Shown here: positions 1,566 to 27,291 of the stretch, piece after piece
Layout: the number at the start of each line of letters is the position of its first letter
Position numbering within the stretch: position 1 is the first letter of the stretch
Source: a virus
Taxonomy: Duplodnaviria; Heunggongvirae; Uroviricota; Caudoviricetes
Virus record (IMG/VR): IMGVR_UViG_3300028912_000018
Length of the DNA: 36,849 nt
Direction: 5' to 3' (one strand)
The notes under the pieces: generated by a model
The model's database searches: none
Told to the model about the DNA's origin: nothing
The model's input: the letters and a program-made list of their open reading frames with translations, nothing else
Made by a program: the position numbers and the translations under genes

Positions 1566-4500
1566 TTAGTGCTTCCCTTCTATTAAGTCTAACCTAGCTT
1601 TTATTCTTTCTATTTCTCTGCGCTGCCATGCCGCCTCGATATAGAATAAGAGATCAGGTCTGACCCCCCATCTAGATCCTGCTGGCGTTATTTCAACGCG
1701 CTCAATGATGTCTTCCATTACCATCACTGGATTATCATCCTCATCAACAATGATGCTCCCGTCATTATCAGTCAGCGGCATTTCCCTTTGGCCAGTAATG
1801 ACGTCATCATATACTGCGGGATAATCGTCATAGCAAAGAAAGGCATAGCGGCATGTTGTGCTTTCTTCTTCCATGAGTCCGTGAGAAATAAGAACATCAC
1901 GAAGTTGCTGCGCGATTACACCATGATGTATCCTCGCTCCTTCTTCCCCCTTTATAGCGACAGCGTTCAGCCATTTATAAGCGATATACCTGACGTCACC
2001 CCAGGCATCCAGCAATGCTTCGTCAGGAGAGACCGGCTCTGTCTTTAATGTTCCGTCACTGGTAACCACAGGATTGGAGCCAAGATAAACTGTCGAGAAC
2101 CTGTTTCCCGGACCACCAAGAGCATTTACATTATCAAGATAAGGTTTAACATCTCCGTTCTCAAAAAGATGTTCGAGTGCGTTATATACCGCGCGACGTG
2201 GAGTACTGCTTCCGGAACCATGCAACGTTATCATTGCACCATCTGCTGAAGACGTTGTTTCACCTCCGCTAACGATTAATCTCTGAGCGGTAACATCATC
2301 AGACGGTACTTTCTTCGCAATAATGGCGTAATTACCCTCAAGTTTGACTTCCGCGCGAACTTGTCCTGATGTACCTGCATGGACAGTCAGTGACTGGACG
2401 GCAACATCATCTGTGAAATCAACGGGTACAGGAACCGTCCTCACGCCTGACGTCGACATAAAAGTAGGAAGCGTTCTGTTAGGAGTGGCTCCGTAGACAA
2501 AATCCCTTGAAACAAATTCTTCCTGTTTAATTTTCACCCTGAAACAATACAAATCAGCCGGGTGACCATCGTGAACATAAGGATATTTTCTGTTGTTATC
2601 CCCTATGCTCCATGGGTTTAGAAAGTCTTCCCCACCGAAAATGTAGTACAGCCAGTTGTCTTTGATACAAACTGAACCAACACCAACCGCAGAGTTAACT
2701 ATTCCGCCCTGATAAATCTGATCAGTAACATTAACCCACTCTACATTATCCAGACTCCACTCATTGACGTTAACTCTGGTCATAAATGTTCTTGGATAAT
2801 TTCCTGCATAACGGTTATCAGGTTCTCCTCCTTCCCACTCACCAAATGCGCGCTCACTGCCAAAAATAATCAGCTCATCGCCAACTTTGGCAAAAGGAAG
2901 GTTTGAGTGATGAACATTATTTGGGAAGCGAAGAGAATTCCATGATGTACCTAAATCAGAGCTTCTGTGCAATGAACTACCGGGTTGAGTACTTAATGTC
3001 CCCCTGGTCGTCAGATACAGAATGCCATCATAATATTTTACACATGGCTCAGATGCATTCGCCTCATATTCTGCAGGTATGCGTCTGCGAACAAAGCTAC
3101 CAGGAGAACCGAAAGCATCAGAGAAATAGAGTATCCCAAGCTCGCGTGGACCAATATCACCATTATGGTAGCCAACAGCAAAACTGTTATCGCTAATCGT
3201 CGCAAAACTGTGAATCTCAGTAACAGGAGTGCTTCCGTCAACAAAAGAAGGAATAGTTCCAAGACTGGTTTTTCTCCATGGTGACGAGTGAAATGATGTA
3301 CCAAAACTCCAGTATCTACCCTCGTTATTCTGATCCACATCCTGGGTATTTTGCGTCGTAACTGTAAAAGTATTTTTATCAATAACAGTAGTCACCGTCA
3401 TATTCCCGGTAACACCTGTAACACCAGAGTTTGAGAAGTTGACAAAATCACCAGCAAATAATCCGTGATCAGTAATGCGAATATAAGCGACTTGCTGATT
3501 TGCTGCTTTCGTTATACCACCATAAACGCGAAGGCTGCGACTCATTGGGCGATCCCACAACTCTGCAACCTGCAGTTTATTTCCTCTCACGGTCCGCGTC
3601 TCAATTACAGCAAAAAGGCGATTTCTGACAACCCCCATACTCATGCAGTGATAGTTAACTGTGGGATAGTTTTCATGTAAATCTGTAAGCCATTCCGGCG
3701 TTGTCCAGGTCTTCCCGTCATCTCCTGAGCGAACCCATGCAACATGGAGGTTATTTACACCATGGCGGTCTCCAGCCATAAAAGGCGCATAGATGACATT
3801 GTCATATACAAACGTTTTATCCTGCGTCCAGGCGTTGTACCACGGTGTATCTGTAATTTTAAATAACTCTCCCTGGATAAAATCTTCAGAAGCATAAAAA
3901 AGAGGCTGGCCCGGTATTCTCTCAAATAAAAAACGAGCATTTTTAAATCGACTGACATCCGGAAGAGTTGATACTTTAAAAGTAAGCCCTAATCCGTCAA
4001 TTTTATAACCTGGAGATGAGGCTTCAAGGCACGCGCTTATTGCAGTGGAATCGTCATTTATACCATCACCAACAGCTCCAAAATCTTTGGGGCTAATAGC
4101 ATCACGCATTTTATCCTGGAACGTTCGGTACACAGCCCCAGAACCATACTGAATAAACCAACCAAAACCACCAACAACCCCGGCGATTGCAGCATCGACA
4201 TAATTACGCATTGAGCGATTATTTACAGCGTCCTGCTCAAATGATGGATCTGCAAGGTTAGAAATTTTGTTTTGCTTTGCATCGTAATATTTTGCAAGCA
4301 AAGATGGTTTCATCAATGCACGTCTGAACCACCCAAAACATTGCTGGATCAGCATCGTCAGGTAGTCAAAGGCATCTTCATGCACTTCGGGGAAAAATTT
4401 TCCCTGATTGCGAAGGTCTGTGTCCTGCACTACATCAAGCACACGATCTATCGTAATTCGCCATCCAGTAGCAAGCGGAGACGGAAGAACCACAGAACCG

Positions 4501-4791: not shown

Positions 4792-4808
4792 ATTACCTTT
4801 CGGGTAAT
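4792..4808. promoter_or_regulatory. operator-like 17-bp palindrome ATTACC-TTTCG-GGTAAT
   Basis: perfect inverted repeat; member of a dispersed motif family. Confidence 0.55.
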
Positions 4809-4844
4809 TTGCAAAACGTGCTGGATAGCAAACAAATTATTTGT

Positions 4845-4864
4845 TACTGTATAAACATACAGTT
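4845..4864. promoter_or_regulatory. LexA (SOS) box TACTGTATAAACATACAGTT
   Basis: CTGT-N8-ACAG with AT-rich spacer; 20 nt upstream of the 4884 start codon. Confidence 0.7.
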
Positions 4865-4883
4865 ATTGCATGGAGAAGATAAG

Positions 4884-5141
4884 ATGCAGCAGTATCACTA
4901 TCCACTGGAAGACGGATTTACCGAAAGGATTCACACGCCGGGAGGCGTCAGGTCACTGGTGGAGGGATCGCACTTGATGAAATTACTCCGGGATCTCGAT
5001 AAGGATGGATTTAATGTCGATGGCCCACTTGCCGAACTGACTGCACTGATTAACTACGTCACCAGCTCACAGATGTCTATGCAGGATCTGCAAACACATC
5101 TCGACTATTGTGCCGAACAATTACGAAAACAAACCAGATAA
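4884..5141 (+). CDS. small antirepressor-like protein (stand-alone paralog of the Ant C-terminal domain)
   Basis: 85 aa; GGAG SD 8 nt upstream; roughly 40-45% identity by eye to the C-terminal 75 aa of the 5459-6115 product. Confidence 0.6.
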   Translation: MQQYHYPLEDGFTERIHTPGGVRSLVEGSHLMKLLRDLDKDGFNVDGPLAELTALINYVTSSQMSMQDLQTHLDYCAEQLRKQTR

Positions 5142-5188: not shown

Positions 5189-5300
5189 TTTACATCGCAC
5201 TCCTCTTGTGCCATAGTAATCGGGCACTGGCAAAATCCAGTGCCGGGATTGGTCTCCCGGATTACTAAGTGGCGCATACCACGCCAGACGTGGTTTTTTT
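5189..5300 (+). ncRNA. candidate small structured RNA or attenuated leader upstream of ant
   Basis: no credible ORF; 8-bp stem hairpin (5223-5244), second hairpin with loop TTGGTC, intrinsic terminator CCACG-loop-CGTGG plus T7 at 5279-5300. Confidence 0.3.
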
Positions 5301-5458
5301 ATGCGTATAGCACAGTCATGCCAGAATTATGGTGGGCTGAATGGGGGTCCGAAAGGACGCCGGTACCACTTAGGCCGGTAAGACCAACTCCGTTCAGTTC
5401 ACCACCATCTGATTGGTCTCAGCGGTGGTGATGTAATTCGCTAAGTGGAGACGCCATC

Positions 5459-7119: not shown

Positions 7120-7131
7120 GTGACATGTCAC
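7120..7131. repeat. 12-bp perfect palindrome GTGACATGTCAC (copy 1 of 3)
   Basis: exact match to copies at 24829 and 27280. Confidence 0.9.
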
Positions 7132-21551: not shown

Positions 21552-21848
21552 TCACTCCTGTTCACTGGCCTCTTTGGCCATCTTCAAATACTGTTCAGGG
21601 CAATGCGCCATAACGCGCTGAAACAGTTCCAGCGCCAGATTGCGTTGCCCCTCATTAAATGCCATTGCCATAGCGTCCATCGGTGAGATAGCGGAAAACA
21701 CACGGCCTTTCTCCAGCACCGACCAGACAACGCGACGCCCCTGTTCACTGCTCATGACAAAGCGAATGTCATCAATTTCACGCTGTGCCATGTCACGTTG
21801 CTTACGGGCGCTTTCTTCTTTCAGTTGATCATCTTCGTAATCTGTCAT
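21552..21848 (-). CDS. hypothetical head-assembly protein
   Basis: 98 aa; ATGA overlaps on both sides. Confidence 0.5.
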   Translation of the reverse strand: MTDYEDDQLKEESARKQRDMAQREIDDIRFVMSSEQGRRVVWSVLEKGRVFSAISPMDAMAMAFNEGQRNLALELFQRVMAHCPEQYLKMAKEASEQE

Positions 21849-23524
21849 TGTGATTGCCCACCCTGACCACTAACTGCATTCGCCATAGCTGACAAAACAC
21901 TCGGATCCGAAGTTTTAGCTTCGCTTAGCGTCTTGGCACCCTGTGCCGCCGCCATCCCCATCGCCATCATTTGTTGCTGCTGTTGTTGCTGTGCCCGTTG
22001 CTGGCGAGCCTGCTCAACCTGTTCCTGCGGAACAATGACGGTTGGAGACACTCCGGACATATCAGCGAATGCATCGATCGCCTGATCAACGTTGAGTTTG
22101 TCGAGAGCTTCTGGTTTCGCTTGCGCAAGTTGACCAATGAAGTTAACCGTGGACGCCAGACTGGACAGGCCGATAGACTTCTGCGCCTGAGCCATGACGG
22201 AAATGTATTCGACCTTCAGGGGCATACCTTCCATCACGTCTGGCGGTGGCGGCAGCATGTTTTTACGCACCATCATCGAGAAAGAGCGGTCAATGAGAGG
22301 ATTAAGACATTCGTCGTTCAGACGCTCCAGAACCGGCCCCAACATCAGAAGTTTTTCTTCTTTCATTTCGATCACCGCTTCAACAGGCATCGAGCGGGTA
22401 TTGATGTTCTGCAACATCATGAACAGATCGACAAAGTAGGCGCTGTTAATGATTTGACGAGTGTCCTGAATGTCTGCCACCAAATCTGCTGTACTGGGGT
22501 TAACCAGATAAGCAGGCCTGAAACCATCCTGACCAGTAATCTGATCGATATACGTGATGTCGCCAGGAAGAAGGGAGGCACGCTGATTCTTGAGGGAAGT
22601 CGGAGCAACCATCGGCGGATTGGTGGCTTTATCAATCAACTGCGACTTGCGCTTCTGGAGAAGCTGCAATGCCTTAACAGGTCCAAGCGCCAGCATACCC
22701 GGGCATGATGATCCATAAACATCTTCGCCGTTAACTTCCCAGCGCGGAGCCATAATTGGAAACTCATCGAATCCGGACTCACGCAACAACTTGTCGTTAT
22801 CGCCACCAACCTCGTAATAAACCGATTTGAATGGCTTGTTCTTGCTATCCAGCTTCGATGTATCGCGGTCAATGTTCGGGTAAACCGAATGCATCACTTC
22901 AATCCACTTCTCGTAGGTGCCGCTTTCCCACATGCTTTTTACGGATTCGCTGACGTTATTTAGCCCGAACTCCTGAACAAGCTGACGAACAGTCATAGAG
23001 AACTTGCGAAAACAGGTGTCCACACTGCCACGAGGTGAGTTAGCCAGGTAGTAACTGCCTATCGGGAATGGCATTGTGCGAATGATGTCCTCGTCATCCT
23101 CCAGCACTGCCATTGCACCAGTGCTGTATGTGCCGAGGCTTCCGTATAACTGCGGCAGCGACTGATAGAGATTCGACTTATTGAACATATCGTTCATGCG
23201 GTTCTGCACCGCCTCAAGCCACAACTTAACAGGGCCATAATCCATCATTTCAGGATCTGGCGTAGCCAGGCGAAACCACGGACGCGCGGGGCTTGTGATG
23301 CCTGACATCATGCCGCTGGCGAGAGTGCGCGCCGCCATAGTCCCGGTCGAATCAATAATGCGTGTATTGCGTCGATCGTTACGGTTGACCTCAGAAGTCA
23401 GAAAGCGGGAACCACGCGGGTTGATGTAATCACTCAACTCGCGCCAGTGCGGCTCGAACGACTGACGCTCGCTTTCAAGTTGTGCGAACTGTTTGTTCAA
23501 TCGCTCTTTAGTTGTTTCCGCCAT
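21845..23524 (-). CDS. portal protein
   Basis: 559 aa; first large gene after terminase; Gln/Ala-rich C-terminal tail; GGAG SD. Confidence 0.75.
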   Translation of the reverse strand: MAETTKERLNKQFAQLESERQSFEPHWRELSDYINPRGSRFLTSEVNRNDRRNTRIIDSTGTMAARTLASGMMSGITSPARPWFRLATPDPEMMDYGPVKLWLEAVQNRMNDMFNKSNLYQSLPQLYGSLGTYSTGAMAVLEDDEDIIRTMPFPIGSYYLANSPRGSVDTCFRKFSMTVRQLVQEFGLNNVSESVKSMWESGTYEKWIEVMHSVYPNIDRDTSKLDSKNKPFKSVYYEVGGDNDKLLRESGFDEFPIMAPRWEVNGEDVYGSSCPGMLALGPVKALQLLQKRKSQLIDKATNPPMVAPTSLKNQRASLLPGDITYIDQITGQDGFRPAYLVNPSTADLVADIQDTRQIINSAYFVDLFMMLQNINTRSMPVEAVIEMKEEKLLMLGPVLERLNDECLNPLIDRSFSMMVRKNMLPPPPDVMEGMPLKVEYISVMAQAQKSIGLSSLASTVNFIGQLAQAKPEALDKLNVDQAIDAFADMSGVSPTVIVPQEQVEQARQQRAQQQQQQQMMAMGMAAAQGAKTLSEAKTSDPSVLSAMANAVSGQGGQSQ

Positions 23525-23538
23525 TTCAATGACTCCGG

Positions 23539-23745
23539 TTACTGACCAAGCAGCGTTTTACCGCTGGTATTAGCGGTTGATGTGTCGCCCTGAGAACCGG
23601 TAAGCAGCGTAGAACTACGACCAGCAGCAGCGCGACGGCGACGAGTTTCTTCGTCGCGGGCATCAACAACGGCGGCATCCTGCTCCTGTGGTGCTGCCTG
23701 AACTTCTGGTGTTGCAGGCACTGATGGTGAGCTACCCATGCACAT
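23539..23745 (-). CDS. small hydrophilic hypothetical protein (68 aa)
   Basis: GGAGTCATTGAT-ATG context nearly identical to the portal RBS. Confidence 0.4.
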   Translation of the reverse strand: MCMGSSPSVPATPEVQAAPQEQDAAVVDARDEETRRRRAAAGRSSTLLTGSQGDTSTANTSGKTLLGQ

Positions 23746-23813
23746 ATCAATGACTCCGTACGCAATTAAATTATTACCAATTTAACCACATATGATTTAT
23801 TTATCGTAGATAG

Positions 23814-23851
23814 TTGACATTTAACGCACAAATTATTACCTTTCAGGTAAC
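23814..23851 (+). promoter_or_regulatory. plus-strand promoter (-35 TTGACA) with operator ATTACC-TTTCA-GGTAAC
   Basis: perfect -35; weak -10 overlapping the operator 23835-23851. Confidence 0.4.
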
Positions 23852-24172
23852 CAAAGAATTCATTCCGGTTACTAACCTGACTGGCTTGTCGTTAAATTGA
23901 ACAGGTGGAGTGAGCTTTTATTTTGAGCAGTACGGCGTATGGCACATGCGCCGATAGCGGTCTGGATACGTTTAAGGGGCACCCTCCCTGGCTGTGGCAA
24001 ACGAACCAGGTAGCCGGAATGTGCAAGTCGAGCGGTTTTATTCCGCGCACGGGGATTCACCATCCCGGCGATTCGGTGTGACGCCTCGGAAGAGACGAGG
24101 GTACAACGATGAGAGCATTTATGGAGCCGCGACAAAGTGTGGCGCCTTAACAGGCTAAGTGCTCTCAGCGTT

Positions 24173-24249
24173 GTGGCATTAGCTCAGTCGGACAGAGCAA
24201 CCGCCTTCTAAGCGGTTGGTCGCAGGTTCGAATCCTGCATGCCACGCCA
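24173..24249 (+). tRNA. tRNA-Arg (anticodon UCU), with encoded CCA
   Basis: cloverleaf by hand: acceptor GTGGCAT/ATGCCAC, D GCTC/GAGC, anticodon stem ACCGC/GCGGT, loop CTTCTAA, T arm GCAGG-TTCGAAT-CCTGC. Confidence 0.85.
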
Positions 24250-24292
24250 GAATCACGCCTAAGGACCGTGATGCCAGAAGTTCCAGGGGCTT

Positions 24293-24335
24293 GGCGGTGA
24301 TGGTTTCCCTTGAAGGACTATCACCGCCCTTTTTA
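24293..24335 (+). terminator. hairpin plus T-run downstream of the tRNA
   Basis: GGCGGTGATGG...CTATCACCGCC then CTTTTTA. Confidence 0.45.
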
Positions 24336-24452
24336 CAGCATGACGCCATTGCGATGGCTTCATGCTGTAAACCAGTACAGCCACGGAAGGCATAACTCAT
24401 TGCTTCCAGTTCGCCCGATTCGCCGGGCATTTTTTTAAGGTGAGATTAGACT

Positions 24453-24824
24453 ATGAGTGAAAAAGACATTGAATCTGAAATTCAGGCTAAAGGTTTAGCC
24501 GCGCCGCGCGTTACGCCAGACCATATCGAGAGCATTATTGCTCAGGAGGCATATTTCACAGCAGAAGATGGTGCCTTTGGCGTAGCCATAAAAGCGAAAC
24601 ATACTGGCGGAGAGGTAAACTACCAGCCGCACGAATCACTTTCTCTGCTGACGTTCTGCGTCCTGGTGCTGCGCAACGGCTTCACCGTCACCGGAGAGAG
24701 CGCCTGTGCAAGCCCGGAAAACTTTGATGCGGAAATTGGTCGGAAGATTGCCCGGCAGAATGCTGTAAACAAAATCTGGATGCTTGAAGGTTACTTGCTG
24801 AAGCAGAAGTTAAGCGAGCAATAA
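24453..24824 (+). CDS. conserved phage protein of unknown function (Gp49-like?)
   Basis: 123 aa; AAGGTGAG SD; family assignment from memory only. Confidence 0.55.
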   Translation: MSEKDIESEIQAKGLAAPRVTPDHIESIIAQEAYFTAEDGAFGVAIKAKHTGGEVNYQPHESLSLLTFCVLVLRNGFTVTGESACASPENFDAEIGRKIARQNAVNKIWMLEGYLLKQKLSEQ

Positions 24825-24828
24825 CACC

Positions 24829-24840
24829 GTGACATGTCAC
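24829..24840. repeat. 12-bp palindrome GTGACATGTCAC (copy 2 of 3)
   Basis: exact; preceded by ATAACACC as at copy 3. Confidence 0.9.
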
Positions 24841-24844
24841 AAAC

Positions 24845-24871
24845 AGCCAGCCGATGAGCTGGCTTTGTTTT
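24845..24871 (+). terminator. intrinsic terminator
   Basis: AGCCAGC-CGATGA-GCTGGCT then TTGTTTT. Confidence 0.6.
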
Positions 24872-24914
24872 ATCCTCACCAGAGGATATCTCCGTCATTA
24901 TCCCCGCTAACGGA

Positions 24915-26390
24915 TTAAGCATAGGGATCATAATCTGTAATGGCCTTGCCTTGCTGGTTCTGCTGCCCGGGAATTCGCAGACGCTTAGACACAGGGAACG
25001 CAAACGTCAGCAGTAGCGCATCGCCTTTACCCGGCGAACGCCCAAGCCGCTCCTTGATATCTTCCTTCGGTTCGATAACGATTTTACCGTCCACTCGAAC
25101 TTTGTACTCTGCCGCCGACAGGTCGTCCGCTGTTTCCTGGTCATCCAGCATGCCGCCCAGCCTCAGCCATGTCTTGCATGAGTTGAACATCTCCCCACGC
25201 TTGTTGAGCATCTGCGGGTCAGTAGACGCGCCACCGAACGGAACAAGTTGCCATGTGCGCCCCCAACCGTCACCGATTGACTTCAGCCCGGTACCGTAAC
25301 CGAAGTCGATGAACACCGCGTCAGCCTGATACTGGTCTTCAAAGTCAGCGATACGCTTCGCCATAATCAGATCGTCGGTAGTCTTGTTGCCAGTCCACAG
25401 CACCTTACTGTGTAGCCCCTGCCGCAGGTATATCACCGCGTCATCAACGCCTGAATATGCCGGGTCAACACCGATTATCACCGGAGCATGTGCCACCTGC
25501 GCAGCGGTTACCACCCGTTTCATTGCCTCGTCAGTAAGACCGGTAGGGATAAACTGCAATTCAGATGCATCAGGGAATATGCCACGCACACGGATTTTAA
25601 CGAAGTCGCTATCTTCCCCGTAGTCATCAACCCATTTCTGCAACTGCTGTTTGTTGGTGCCTTCCACCGTCCTGCTGTCAATCTGCGCAGTTTTCCAGCG
25701 GTGTTTGTATTTGCGGAAACATTCACGGAAACGCCCGGTGTTACGTGTAGGGTTTCCGAAAGCCACCCAGATAATCTCAGTGTCTTCGTCCGTTAGCGCA
25801 CCCTCGGCAACTTCCCACACCAGATCCGCAATGTTCGACGCTTCATCAAATACCACGATGATGCGTTTACGCTCGTTGTGTAGTCCGGCGAATGCCTCAG
25901 TGTTGTGCTCAGACCAGGGGATTGCGTCAGCTCGCCACCGCTTGTCGTGCCCAGGATCATTGCTGTACATCGCAGTAGCGGTACAGGTAAACCAGTCTTT
26001 CGTGATAGCAAGGTTCGACCACTTGATAATTTCCGGCCAGGTCTTCGTTCGTAGCTGGTTGTCGGTGTTGGCGGTCACCACGACCTTACAATCCTCGCAA
26101 GTGGACATGCCCCAGTTGATCAGCATTGAGATGAATGCGGATTTACCAATACCGTGACCAGAAGCGCGTGCCAGCATAAGCGGCTGATAGCGCGTCTCTG
26201 GATTCTGCAGGTGATCACGTATCTCTCGGAACGCATCAGCCTGCCACTGACGTGGACCGGTGGCATGTGCCAGTTCAGTACCCTCTTCCCCCCACGGGAA
26301 CGCATAGAGGGCATAGCCAAGCGGATCGTGAGTGAACCCTGCAATATCCTCGATCAACTGCTCTTCAGGAGATAACGCTGTATCTGTCAC
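24915..26390 (-). CDS. terminase large subunit
   Basis: 491 aa; P-loop-like GHGIGKS; acidic motifs; GTGA overlap with terS stop. Confidence 0.8.
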   Translation of the reverse strand: MTDTALSPEEQLIEDIAGFTHDPLGYALYAFPWGEEGTELAHATGPRQWQADAFREIRDHLQNPETRYQPLMLARASGHGIGKSAFISMLINWGMSTCEDCKVVVTANTDNQLRTKTWPEIIKWSNLAITKDWFTCTATAMYSNDPGHDKRWRADAIPWSEHNTEAFAGLHNERKRIIVVFDEASNIADLVWEVAEGALTDEDTEIIWVAFGNPTRNTGRFRECFRKYKHRWKTAQIDSRTVEGTNKQQLQKWVDDYGEDSDFVKIRVRGIFPDASELQFIPTGLTDEAMKRVVTAAQVAHAPVIIGVDPAYSGVDDAVIYLRQGLHSKVLWTGNKTTDDLIMAKRIADFEDQYQADAVFIDFGYGTGLKSIGDGWGRTWQLVPFGGASTDPQMLNKRGEMFNSCKTWLRLGGMLDDQETADDLSAAEYKVRVDGKIVIEPKEDIKERLGRSPGKGDALLLTFAFPVSKRLRIPGQQNQQGKAITDYDPYA

Positions 26391-26983
26391 TGATTACCAT
26401 CCTGACGTTCTTTGAGTCGCTTCCTGGCTGCTGCTATGCGATCAGCAATTGTCACATTCACATTAACATCCAGACGTTCTTTGAACGCGTTGACATCAAC
26501 ATGCTTACCAATCAGCTCAAGGTTCTTCACCTTGTCAGGCCATTTAATTTTTTTGAGGATTGTCTCTATCGAATCCTCGTTCATGTTCATGATGGTCGAT
26601 GACAGATCAAAGCCACTAAGCGTAGTGCGCCAGATTTTCGGCCACTCGCGGATTGGCTTAAGGCTCCCATCGTCGTTGAGGATGTCGATCACGTCCATCT
26701 GGTCGATCTCCACCAGGCGCATGAGAACGTAATCAGCACTGACGCGCATTCGTTTGTTGCGCTCCTCCATCAACTCGGCAATCCGTTTCTGAATGCGTTC
26801 ATCGCGCATCATGACACTGGCTTTAACTGCCGCTGTATTTGGGGAGAATCCTGCATTAATCGCTGCCTGAGTCTGGTTTTCAGGCGTTTTGATGTATGAC
26901 TGGCAATAAGCCTCCTGCATTGCTGTTAGTGGCTTAAATTGCGTTGATTTGCGTTTATAGGTTTTAGGTTCAGCAGGCATCAT
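26387..26983 (-). CDS. terminase small subunit
   Basis: start placed at ATG-ATG 26983/26980; the 26-aa extension to TTG 27061 is translated operator sequence. Confidence 0.65.
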   Translation of the reverse strand: MMPAEPKTYKRKSTQFKPLTAMQEAYCQSYIKTPENQTQAAINAGFSPNTAAVKASVMMRDERIQKRIAELMEERNKRMRVSADYVLMRLVEIDQMDVIDILNDDGSLKPIREWPKIWRTTLSGFDLSSTIMNMNEDSIETILKKIKWPDKVKNLELIGKHVDVNAFKERLDVNVNVTIADRIAAARKRLKERQDGNQ

Positions 26984-27020
26984 AACCACCGTGGTAATAG
27001 TTACCGTTGTGGTAATAGTA
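26982..27020 (-). promoter_or_regulatory. tandem operator-like sites plus -10 TACTAT before terS
   Basis: GTTACC-GTTGT-GGTAAT (27000-27016) and ATAACC-ACCGT-GGTAAT (26982-26998); minus-strand TACTAT at 27015-27020. Confidence 0.4.
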
Positions 27021-27057
27021 CCATGCAAAATAAAGCCGCCATAGTTGGCGGCAGTAT

Positions 27058-27270
27058 TCAAAGTCCATCAAATTCATCGTAAAAACTCTCGTCAAGATAC
27101 CCTTCCCATTTACCGCGAATGAAAATTACATCCTCGCCGCAAGGGTGCTGACTGTCGATAACTATATCCCTCCTGACGCAACCATACTTATGCATGAGAA
27201 ATTTAACCTCTTTCGGAAAATTTGCTGAGTTATCTCTCATATCTTCAAGGTCGTAGCGTATTTTTGGCAT
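27058..27270 (-). CDS. hypothetical protein (70 aa)
   Basis: start at internal ATG with GAAGGTG SD. Confidence 0.4.
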   Translation of the reverse strand: MPKIRYDLEDMRDNSANFPKEVKFLMHKYGCVRRDIVIDSQHPCGEDVIFIRGKWEGYLDESFYDEFDGL

Positions 27271-27279
27271 AACACCTTC

Positions 27280-27291
27280 GTGACATGTCAC
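27280..27291. repeat. 12-bp palindrome GTGACATGTCAC (copy 3 of 3)
   Basis: exact; preceded by ATAACACC. Confidence 0.9.

Follow-up and report, generated by a model that had tools for sequence, protein, structure and literature searches.

Why should a temperate phage keep a small plus-strand transcription unit among virion genes that are read from the minus strand, and why should that unit begin with a long leader in which no protein can be recognised? The locus that raises these questions lies in IMG/VR virus record IMGVR_UViG_3300028912_000018, a stretch of 36,849 nucleotides (nt) that we call the window and that is, by its sequence, an epsilon15/phiV10-like temperate podophage (Uetakevirus). 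At 23814-24872 it carries a cassette with, in this order, a weak promoter, a structured leader of about 240 nt, tRNA-Arg(UCU), two intrinsic terminators and one further hairpin, a gene for a protein of 123 amino acids (aa), a palindrome and a terminator. The best explanation of the cassette is a self-contained early or accessory plus-strand transcription unit. Taken alone it is ordinary and already in GenBank. Two things about it are new: the gene occupies a cargo slot for anti-defence sponges, and the leader belongs to an undescribed, well-supported and very common family of structured RNAs. The leader RNA probably controls its own transcript.

A structured leader RNA

The leader is a strand-specific, pseudoknotted RNA of a large family absent from Rfam. 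Its parts in the window are as follows.

23885-23931, plus strand: 5' extension of the leader, conserved in uetakeviruses only (alignment with the Tyrion, PAT1 and Klebsiella phage loci)
23932-24103, plus strand: conserved 5' domain of the leader (covariance model R1)
23933-23940 with 23946-23953, plus strand: helix P1, the hairpin CGGCGUAU-GGCAC-AUGCGCCG with loop GGCAC
23957-23965 with 24006-24014, plus strand: helix P2, GCGGUCUGG with CCAGGUAGC, closing a variable insert
24016-24027, plus strand: invariant junction GGAAUGUGCAAG
about 24030-24048, plus strand: variable hairpin
24052-24055 with 24063-24066, plus strand: helix P4
24058-24061 with 24075-24078, plus strand: pseudoknot between the P4 loop CACC and a downstream GGUG
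24084-24088 with 24096-24100, plus strand: helix P5, CCUCG-GAAGAGA-CGAGG
24104-24172, plus strand: P6 module, whose closing stem CAACGAUGAGAGCA / UGCUCUCAGCGUUG encloses two small hairpins (minimum-free-energy fold)

The structure was tested on an alignment of 30 representatives with less than 94% identity, from which the covariance model R1 was also built. In the four helices and the pseudoknot 95.9% of cells are paired, against 24-43% when the partners are slid by 1-3 columns. Thirteen pairs have changed on both sides, and none of 500 shuffles reaches the observed values. R1 finds a single copy in the window, at 23932-24103 (143 bits, E 1e-43). It gives 102-169 bits on 23 bacterial genome loci that took no part in model building; in these independent loci 96.0% of cells are paired and 11 pairs are compensatory. 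We read the fold on the plus strand because its invariant G-U pairs would become A-C mismatches on the opposite strand. The pairing of the P1 loop with GUGC was invariant in this material. The predicted structure of the leader is strong (z = -2.6), and some long single-stranded stretches are invariant.

An earlier note on this DNA, made from the letters alone, had described the leader as lacking a convincing open reading frame (ORF). That description holds: the homologues share no conserved frame, and their lengths fall into all three classes modulo 3. What the note missed is the RNA supported by covariation, which is the most conserved and most widespread part of the cassette. Rfam 15 gave no match over the leader, either at the gathering threshold or at E<=10 in 23740-24460, nor over the homologue in mEp460. 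A literature search for the conserved 15-17-mers found no paper that has them in the library consulted.

The P6 module is more changeable. Its closing stem has compensatory variants (GAGAGCA/UGCUCUC, AAGAGCA/UGCUCUU and GAGAGCGCAC/GUGCGCUCCC); this covariation is based on the examples listed and not on a formal count, and a tabulation by regular expression caught part of the family. The apical 40-110 nt are wholly different between phages, P6 is sometimes duplicated, and the classical version in phage P1 (locus L004) is without it.

Distribution and operon-head position of the family

A distant BLAST search with 23814-24172 finds the phiV10 relatives and, at 70-82% identity, the lambdoid phages cdtI, mEp460, 2H10, Stx2c and Stx2a. 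Phages P1, P7, D6, SJ46 and RCS47 are matched in the same range, together with phages of Enterobacter, Salmonella and Klebsiella. At least 120 IMG/VR contigs, with 102 distinct variants, contain the invariant 19-mer GGTAGCCGGAATGTGCAAG (24009-24027), and the leader family is present in 88 GenBank phages. Among 5426 complete E. coli genomes 1840 have the element, on chromosomes and plasmids and with up to four copies per genome; in these 1840 genomes the pipeline annotation places nothing under the matches. The 19-mer is also found in 24 loci of GTDB species-representative genomes, from about a dozen genera, almost all Enterobacteriaceae or Erwiniaceae. Exact copies occur in two Firmicutes bins of metagenome-assembled genomes (L141 and L153, labelled Oscillospiraceae, Bacillota), L153 having a full-length element of 169 bits on a 1.7-kb contig. 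These copies are most likely mis-binned enterobacterial phage DNA.

The element is always co-directional with genes and upstream of them, at the heads of operons. In lambdoid prophages it is always first after cI, on the same strand, and it is preceded by the cI terminator and a promoter-like (pL-like) site with two operator-like repeats. The early-left genes that follow encode DUF2303 and YfbR-like proteins in one common set and a ParB-helix-turn-helix protein in the other. A second temperate type likewise has the element after a short repressor-like gene. In phage P1 it stands between tRNA-Ile2 and ban, in the C1-controlled ban operon, which also has a dicF-like region and two more tRNAs. 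In uetakeviruses its place is between a 68-aa gene and the cargo slot, and both there and in P1-like plasmids it precedes cargo that is Acb4 or Tad2-like. Of 92 distinct contexts, 28 have a promoter-like site before the RNA, at a distance of 35-55 nt or more; among control windows the frequency is 5.5%. Beyond the element, terminators on the same strand are over-represented at 300-450 nt (32 of 118 contexts).

There is one copy per locus, the exception being locus L027; a second copy in the right operon, in the manner of putR, was sought and none was found elsewhere. The L027 copies are at 3998-4153 and 4806-4958 on the minus strand, each followed by an opposite-strand gene of 163-166 aa. An inserted opposite-strand gene precedes the second copy; after it comes another opposite-strand gene and then the early-left genes. 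The stretch downstream of the RNA gives the impression of a hotspot at which accessory genes are inserted. For the first ORFs downstream in the lambdoids Pfam gives no match, and their N-termini are not arginine-rich in the manner of N.

The 3' junction, the cargo and the rest of the cassette

Downstream and upstream of the leader the cassette has the following features.

23814-23842, plus strand: candidate sigma-70 promoter, read from the sequence, with -35 TTGACA (23814-23819), a 17-nt spacer and -10 TACCTT
24173-24249, plus strand: tRNA-Arg, anticodon tct, with encoded CCA (ARAGORN; Rfam RF00005, 73.3 bits)
24293-24328, T-run to 24334, plus strand: intrinsic-terminator-like hairpin 1, with 14 pairs (terminator scan)
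24335-24368, plus strand: hairpin 2, ACAGCAUGA...UCAUGCUGU, without a T-run (read from the sequence)
24413-24428, T-run to 24436, plus strand: intrinsic-terminator-like hairpin 3, with a T7 run (terminator scan)
24453-24824, plus strand: 123-aa Acb4-family protein (N4 gp49 / Sf6 gp66), putative cyclic-dinucleotide sponge against the cyclic-oligonucleotide-based anti-phage signalling system, CBASS (PF13876)
24829-24840, strandless: 12-bp palindrome GTGACATGTCAC (pattern search)
24845-24864, tail to 24872, plus strand: closing terminator hairpin with a T-rich tail (terminator scan)

The first base of tRNA-Arg follows immediately on the last base of P6, and the placement is the same in 29 related loci. 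On the other side of the element, tRNA-Ile ends about 15 nt before it in 17 P1-like loci. Where there is no tRNA, the P6-terminal GUUGUGG meets its exact complement 70-195 nt further on in 49 of 109 distinct contexts (chance about 1%), and this pairing closes a module of about 110-130 nt. In mEp460 a closing stem and three hairpins make up the module, and a terminator comes after it. The module in the lambdoid tRNA slot (L003 3237-3430; L010 and others) is cloverleaf-like, with a closing stem of 7-10 bp and three hairpins; the Rfam tRNA model does not recognise the lambdoid closed module. The inserts in or downstream of P6 in L104, L100, L098 and L007 hold T-arm-like strings, GGTTCGATTCC and GGTTCAATCC, which suggests that the variable region contains fragments of tRNAs or pieces that resemble them.

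Published experiments bear on this junction. The small RNA sRNA-17 of E. coli K1 RS218 is 193 nt long and was mapped by rapid amplification of cDNA ends (RACE) and detected by Northern blot and quantitative reverse-transcription PCR (qRT-PCR); the same study treated a fragment, 'PsRNA-17', as its promoter and reported binding of ArcA (Song et al. 2020, PMC7719688). We located sRNA-17 by mapping the published primers onto mEp460 (L003), in place of RS218. There it equals 3237-3430 on the plus strand, which is the closed module 3' of the element, and the fragment published as 'promoter of sRNA-17' (2988-3237) coincides with the element, the homologue of 23932-24172. The published Northern probe detects the plus strand, and the qRT-PCR amplicon starts inside the element. 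From the mapped primers, RACE and Northern of PMC7719688 it follows that the lambdoid homologue is transcribed, with an RNA 5' end exactly at its 3' boundary. sRNA-17 shares the locus and the strand of the element in mEp460-like prophages; it differs in being the segment immediately 3' of the element, which the published study took as promoter DNA and not as RNA. In the window tRNA-Arg fills the position of sRNA-17, and the predicted RNase P cut falls at the same boundary.

What does the cassette deliver? The earlier note had seen a conserved phage gene of 123 aa, which is correct as far as it goes; its identity had been missed. Judged by sequence, the product belongs to the Acb4 family of anti-CBASS sponges: it matches PF13876 with E 2.3e-35 and 121.4 bits (cutoff 27) over the full 82-position profile. 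Direct similarity to SPO1 Acb4 (structure PDB 9e4w) is just 20 bits, with E 0.007. A 2024 bioRxiv preprint equates PF13876 with the family of Acb4, a cyclic-dinucleotide sponge against CBASS; in it eight of eight homologues assayed bound 3'3'-cGAMP (10.1101/2024.12.30.630793).

Other uetakeviruses have different plus-strand genes in the same slot, for instance one for a 98-aa protein that resembles the Tad2 sponges (PF11195, E 3e-24). In Klebsiella phage ST512-KPC3phi13.3 the gene in the slot is annotated as DUF2829-domain-containing, DUF2829 being presumably Pfam's Tad2-like family. In one group of P1-like elements, too, the first gene after the leader RNA carries a Tad2-like domain. Since Acb4 and Tad2-like genes alternate in it, the slot is an exchangeable position for anti-defence cargo. 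PHROGs gave 'unknown function' for all the alternative cargo genes and first lambdoid ORFs.

The tRNA is the sole one that ARAGORN finds in the whole window, and its Rfam score compares with a gathering score of 29. It is already annotated in the O157 typing phages 9 and 10; the phiV10 record has a minus-strand ORF across it instead. That ORF, the 'hypothetical protein' phiV10p04 (window 24179-24430, minus strand; also locus L001 2940-3191), is antisense to tRNA-Arg and two terminators. Both it and mEp460_037, which overlaps the structured RNA, are probably mis-annotations. At megablast level 65 Synechococcus phage records match 24173-24249, the tRNA part of the query, which suggests, as far as sequence goes, that this tRNA-Arg(UCU) is widely shared among phages. 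The ORFs of the window use AGA and AGG at 7.6 and 4.1 per 1000 codons, mostly in a gene of tailspike size and a 244-codon gene at the left end. In E. coli K-12 the figures are about 2 and 1. Because the phage is thus 3-4 fold enriched in these codons, it is plausible that the tRNA supplements their decoding. Other phage tRNA cassettes (ileZ-argN-argO of Stx phages, the tRNAs of P1, the T5 tRNAs that counter tRNA-targeting defences) likewise set a tRNA for rare codons (AGA/AGG) beside accessory genes. The present one differs: it has just one tRNA, and this is fused to a structured leader that is conserved and to a gene against CBASS.

Most of the remaining architecture is as the earlier note had read it: a tRNA-Arg(UCU) for the rare AGA codon, three successive hairpins of which two have T-runs, a copy of the palindrome, a terminator at the end, and all this on the plus strand within a block of minus-strand virion genes, so that its transcription would converge on theirs. 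The claim that found no support in the scan is that of a TTGACA promoter with operator. A consensus promoter scan of 23300-25300 called zero promoters, the candidate -10 agrees with TATAAT at 3 of 6 positions, and no operator was identified. The description of the unit as 'inserted' fits in part. Every uetakevirus examined has a plus-strand slot here; the parts that vary between relatives are the tRNA and the cargo.

The T-run of hairpin 3 lies 17 nt upstream of the start codon of the 123-aa gene. Between the tRNA and this gene the scans detect two terminators and no promoter, hence expression of the Acb4-family gene seems to need read-through. In the phiV10 record the closing hairpin is annotated as a terminator on the strand of the large terminase gene, TerL. 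The palindrome GTGACATGTCAC has three exact copies in the window (7120-7131, 24829-24840 and 27280-27291) and a near-copy at 21785. Its contexts are after a hairpin at convergent gene ends, after the Acb4 stop codon, and about 14 nt upstream of a minus-strand start before the small terminase gene; it may be a regulator-binding site, as a candidate.

The 1.16-kb cassette region is 98.5% identical over its full length to Escherichia phage phiV10 and to O157 typing phages 9 and 10. This match, together with the portal, capsid and small terminase families on the minus strand, is why we assign the window to Uetakevirus. The major capsid gene, on the minus strand, matches PF20911, and the genes nearest to the cassette are these.

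21845-23524, minus strand: portal (PF12236)
23539-23745, minus strand: the 68-aa gene
24915-26390, minus strand: TerL
26387-27061, minus strand: TerS, small terminase (PF03592)

What the leader might do

We lean, with due hesitation, towards a leader that acts in cis and works like put of phage HK022, carrying RNA polymerase through terminators; the parallel is one of mechanism and not of descent. The RNA put acts in cis to suppress termination, and mutations in the zinc-binding domain of beta-prime block it. By analogy, the folded 5' domain of the leader would act on the transcribing polymerase, alone or with host factors, and would make elongation resistant to downstream intrinsic terminators and, over the long untranslated stretch, to Rho. 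The anti-defence gene would then be reached by no transcripts except those begun at the promoter of the cassette, and in this the leader would resemble HK022 put RNA or an rrn leader. An RNase P cut at the 5' end of the tRNA would release the leader as a discrete RNA, and the tRNA would supply AGA/AGG decoding. Several features lead us to this suggestion: the place at the head of early operons, co-direction, the single copy, the terminators downstream, a first ORF that is not N-like, and a long untranslated transcript exposed to Rho.

How far does the likeness to put go? The lambdoid members resemble HK022 put (putL, putR) and the putL-like RNA of HK639 in that the element is the first thing transcribed after the early-left promoter, upstream of intrinsic terminators. 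These phages have no annotated N and no N-like first ORF, and their hosts are Enterobacteriaceae. The put-like position (early promoter upstream, terminators downstream, phages without N) is thus found among the lambdoids; in the window the promoter is weak. Hairpin P1 reads ACGGCG...CAUGCGUCG, as does stem I of HK022 putL. In put it is the A9-G35 pair and the C26-G29 bulge that contact RNA polymerase. There are also clear differences. The element has about 170 nt plus P6 where put has about 70, and a multi-helix pseudoknot where put has two stems. It usually occurs once per phage, without a copy in the right operon, and it is found in phage P1 and uetakeviruses too. We therefore reject membership of the put family: R1 gives no match, the fold is larger and different, and the sequence likeness is a short motif in the first hairpin.

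A number of points weigh against antitermination in cis. The search with R1 on HK022 putL and the HK639 putL-like RNA found no match even with filters off and E up to 10. The 193-nt sRNA-17 ends at a terminator just downstream, so at least part of transcription stops there. A stringent same-strand terminator lies within 900 nt in just 50 of 124 contexts, so that the terminator counts favour antitermination without deciding the matter. In phage P1 the element is 2.4 kb from the promoter, and no terminator before ban is obvious by eye, no scan having been run. In the window the cassette's own promoter is weak, and read-through past the last terminator would give RNA antisense to terminase. Clean excision by tRNA-processing enzymes would agree just as well with an RNA that acts in trans. 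Finally, we infer the mechanism, and with it the function, from position and structure.

One may go further and suggest that the 5' domain represents a structural class of phage RNA not described before, which is self-sufficient in modifying transcription and unrelated to put in its fold. tRNA punctuation would release it, and it would allow passage through terminators, into immediate-early and anti-defence genes, to no transcripts other than those begun at its own promoter. The same would hold for the lambdoid, the P1-like and the epsilon15-like phages, and so for about a third of the E. coli genomes sequenced. This fuller proposal is more doubtful than cis action as such; we put it at roughly one chance in three.

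The main rival of action in cis, which we consider unlikely and yet worth serious attention, is that the leader is a stable trans-acting non-coding RNA (a protein decoy, an anti-defence RNA or a regulator) that is cut out by the tRNA-processing machinery. RNase P would act at the 3' side here and tRNA 3' processing at the 5' side in phage P1, and a place at the head of an operon would mean early and abundant synthesis. The junctions described above speak for it: tRNA-Arg at the 3' end in 29 loci, tRNA-Ile at the 5' end in 17 P1-like loci, elsewhere a closed 110-130-nt module that begins at the 3' junction (49 of 109 contexts), and a mapped RNA 5' end at that junction. The ban operon of P1 has a dicF-like RNA and three tRNAs besides, and the long invariant single-stranded stretches would suit a conserved binding partner. 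Against these stand the invariable position upstream of co-directional genes and the two copies of L027, both upstream of early-left genes, which suggests a requirement in cis.

The layout of P6 brings to mind one trans-acting RNA in particular, the C4 antisense RNA of P1/P7 (RF01695; window copy at 5325-5409). In C4 a closing stem surrounds two hairpins, and maturation is by RNase P. It is also a leader-encoded phage RNA, and P6, which shares its layout, ends exactly where RNase P would cut. The two differ in that there is no similarity by sequence or model (E up to 10, 23740-24460), no complementary target, and no counterpart of the 5' domain in C4. The best antisense match of the P6 apical region in the window is 11 nt, against 10-11 nt for shuffles. 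An antisense role like that of C4 is rejected, as this complementarity is at chance level. The Rfam match to C4 in the window (61.2 bits, plus strand) is adjacent to one to isrK at 5224-5300 (67.7 bits, plus strand). A 218-aa ORF follows the pair, and the arrangement resembles an immunity module of the P1/P7 type (immI, c4-ant) in this podophage.

The leader could also be a scaffold for the maturation or stability of the adjacent tRNA or tRNA-like RNA and of the downstream mRNA, with no effect on transcription. Its strong predicted structure would suit such a role, and so would the fact that a tRNA, or a closed module resembling one, adjoins it directly. We nevertheless think it improbable. 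Cellular tRNAs and those of other phages need no such leader, several uetakeviruses (Tyrion and PAT1, for example) keep the RNA without a tRNA, and the invariance of the sequence exceeds the needs of a passive scaffold.

A shade less probable again is an RNA that senses a ligand or signal, like a riboswitch, and gates read-through into anti-defence or early genes. Its appeal is plain: the pseudoknotted fold is complex, the junction nucleotides are invariant, terminators follow, and so do genes for cyclic-nucleotide sponges (Acb4, and Tad2-like proteins in three backbones). Moreover, the GUUG with which P6 ends on its 3' side has two potential partners, one inside P6 and the other a CCACAAC further downstream, a possible switch. 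However, no terminator overlaps the conserved domain, the nearest being more than 190 nt away, past the tRNA. The genes that follow it in phage P1 and in most lambdoids do not encode sponges, and the RNA shows no similarity to any Rfam riboswitch.

Might the stretch be conserved as DNA? It could be an ArcA-regulated promoter of an RNA of the sRNA-17 type, since this very fragment served Song et al. as 'PsRNA-17', and they report that ArcA binds to it (PMC7719688). It could also be a homologous 'linker' for the exchange of cargo between phages, as mosaic junctions fall at its 3' end and the downstream cargo is highly variable. The compensatory changes and strand-specific G-U pairs indicate selection on the RNA fold instead. 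The published qRT-PCR amplicon begins within the element, which means that the element is transcribed, and where sRNA-17 would lie the window has a tRNA, with a 5' end that comes from processing and not from initiation. We rate the DNA-level explanation marginally below a sensor.

Last comes a small minus-strand protein, for which there are ORFs at 23872-24135 (87 aa, TTG start) and 24179-24430 (83 aa) and two GenBank coding sequences (mEp460_037 over the leader homologue and phiV10p04 adjacent, over the tRNA/terminator region), and which we reject as highly improbable for want of a conserved frame. Homologues have stops in every frame, and their lengths are of every class modulo 3. The phiV10p04 ORF runs antisense to the tRNA and two terminators, and most records annotate nothing here.

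Processive antitermination by RNA alone has so far meant a handful of put sequences. Many lambdoid phages without N have no known mechanism of early antitermination (e.g. PMC12315714). If cis antitermination by the leader is true, a second, much larger and structurally different class of RNA at that position would fill this gap. It would also offer a handle on the timing of counter-defence gene expression (Acb4 and Tad2-like sponges) in temperate phages. Prophages of E. coli, Salmonella and Klebsiella and P1-like plasmids, thousands in all, would gain an annotation where the record is now blank or a mis-called small ORF. Even if the mechanism is a different one, there remains a well-supported new RNA family suitable for Rfam, and the published 'promoter of sRNA-17' is to be reinterpreted as one of its members.

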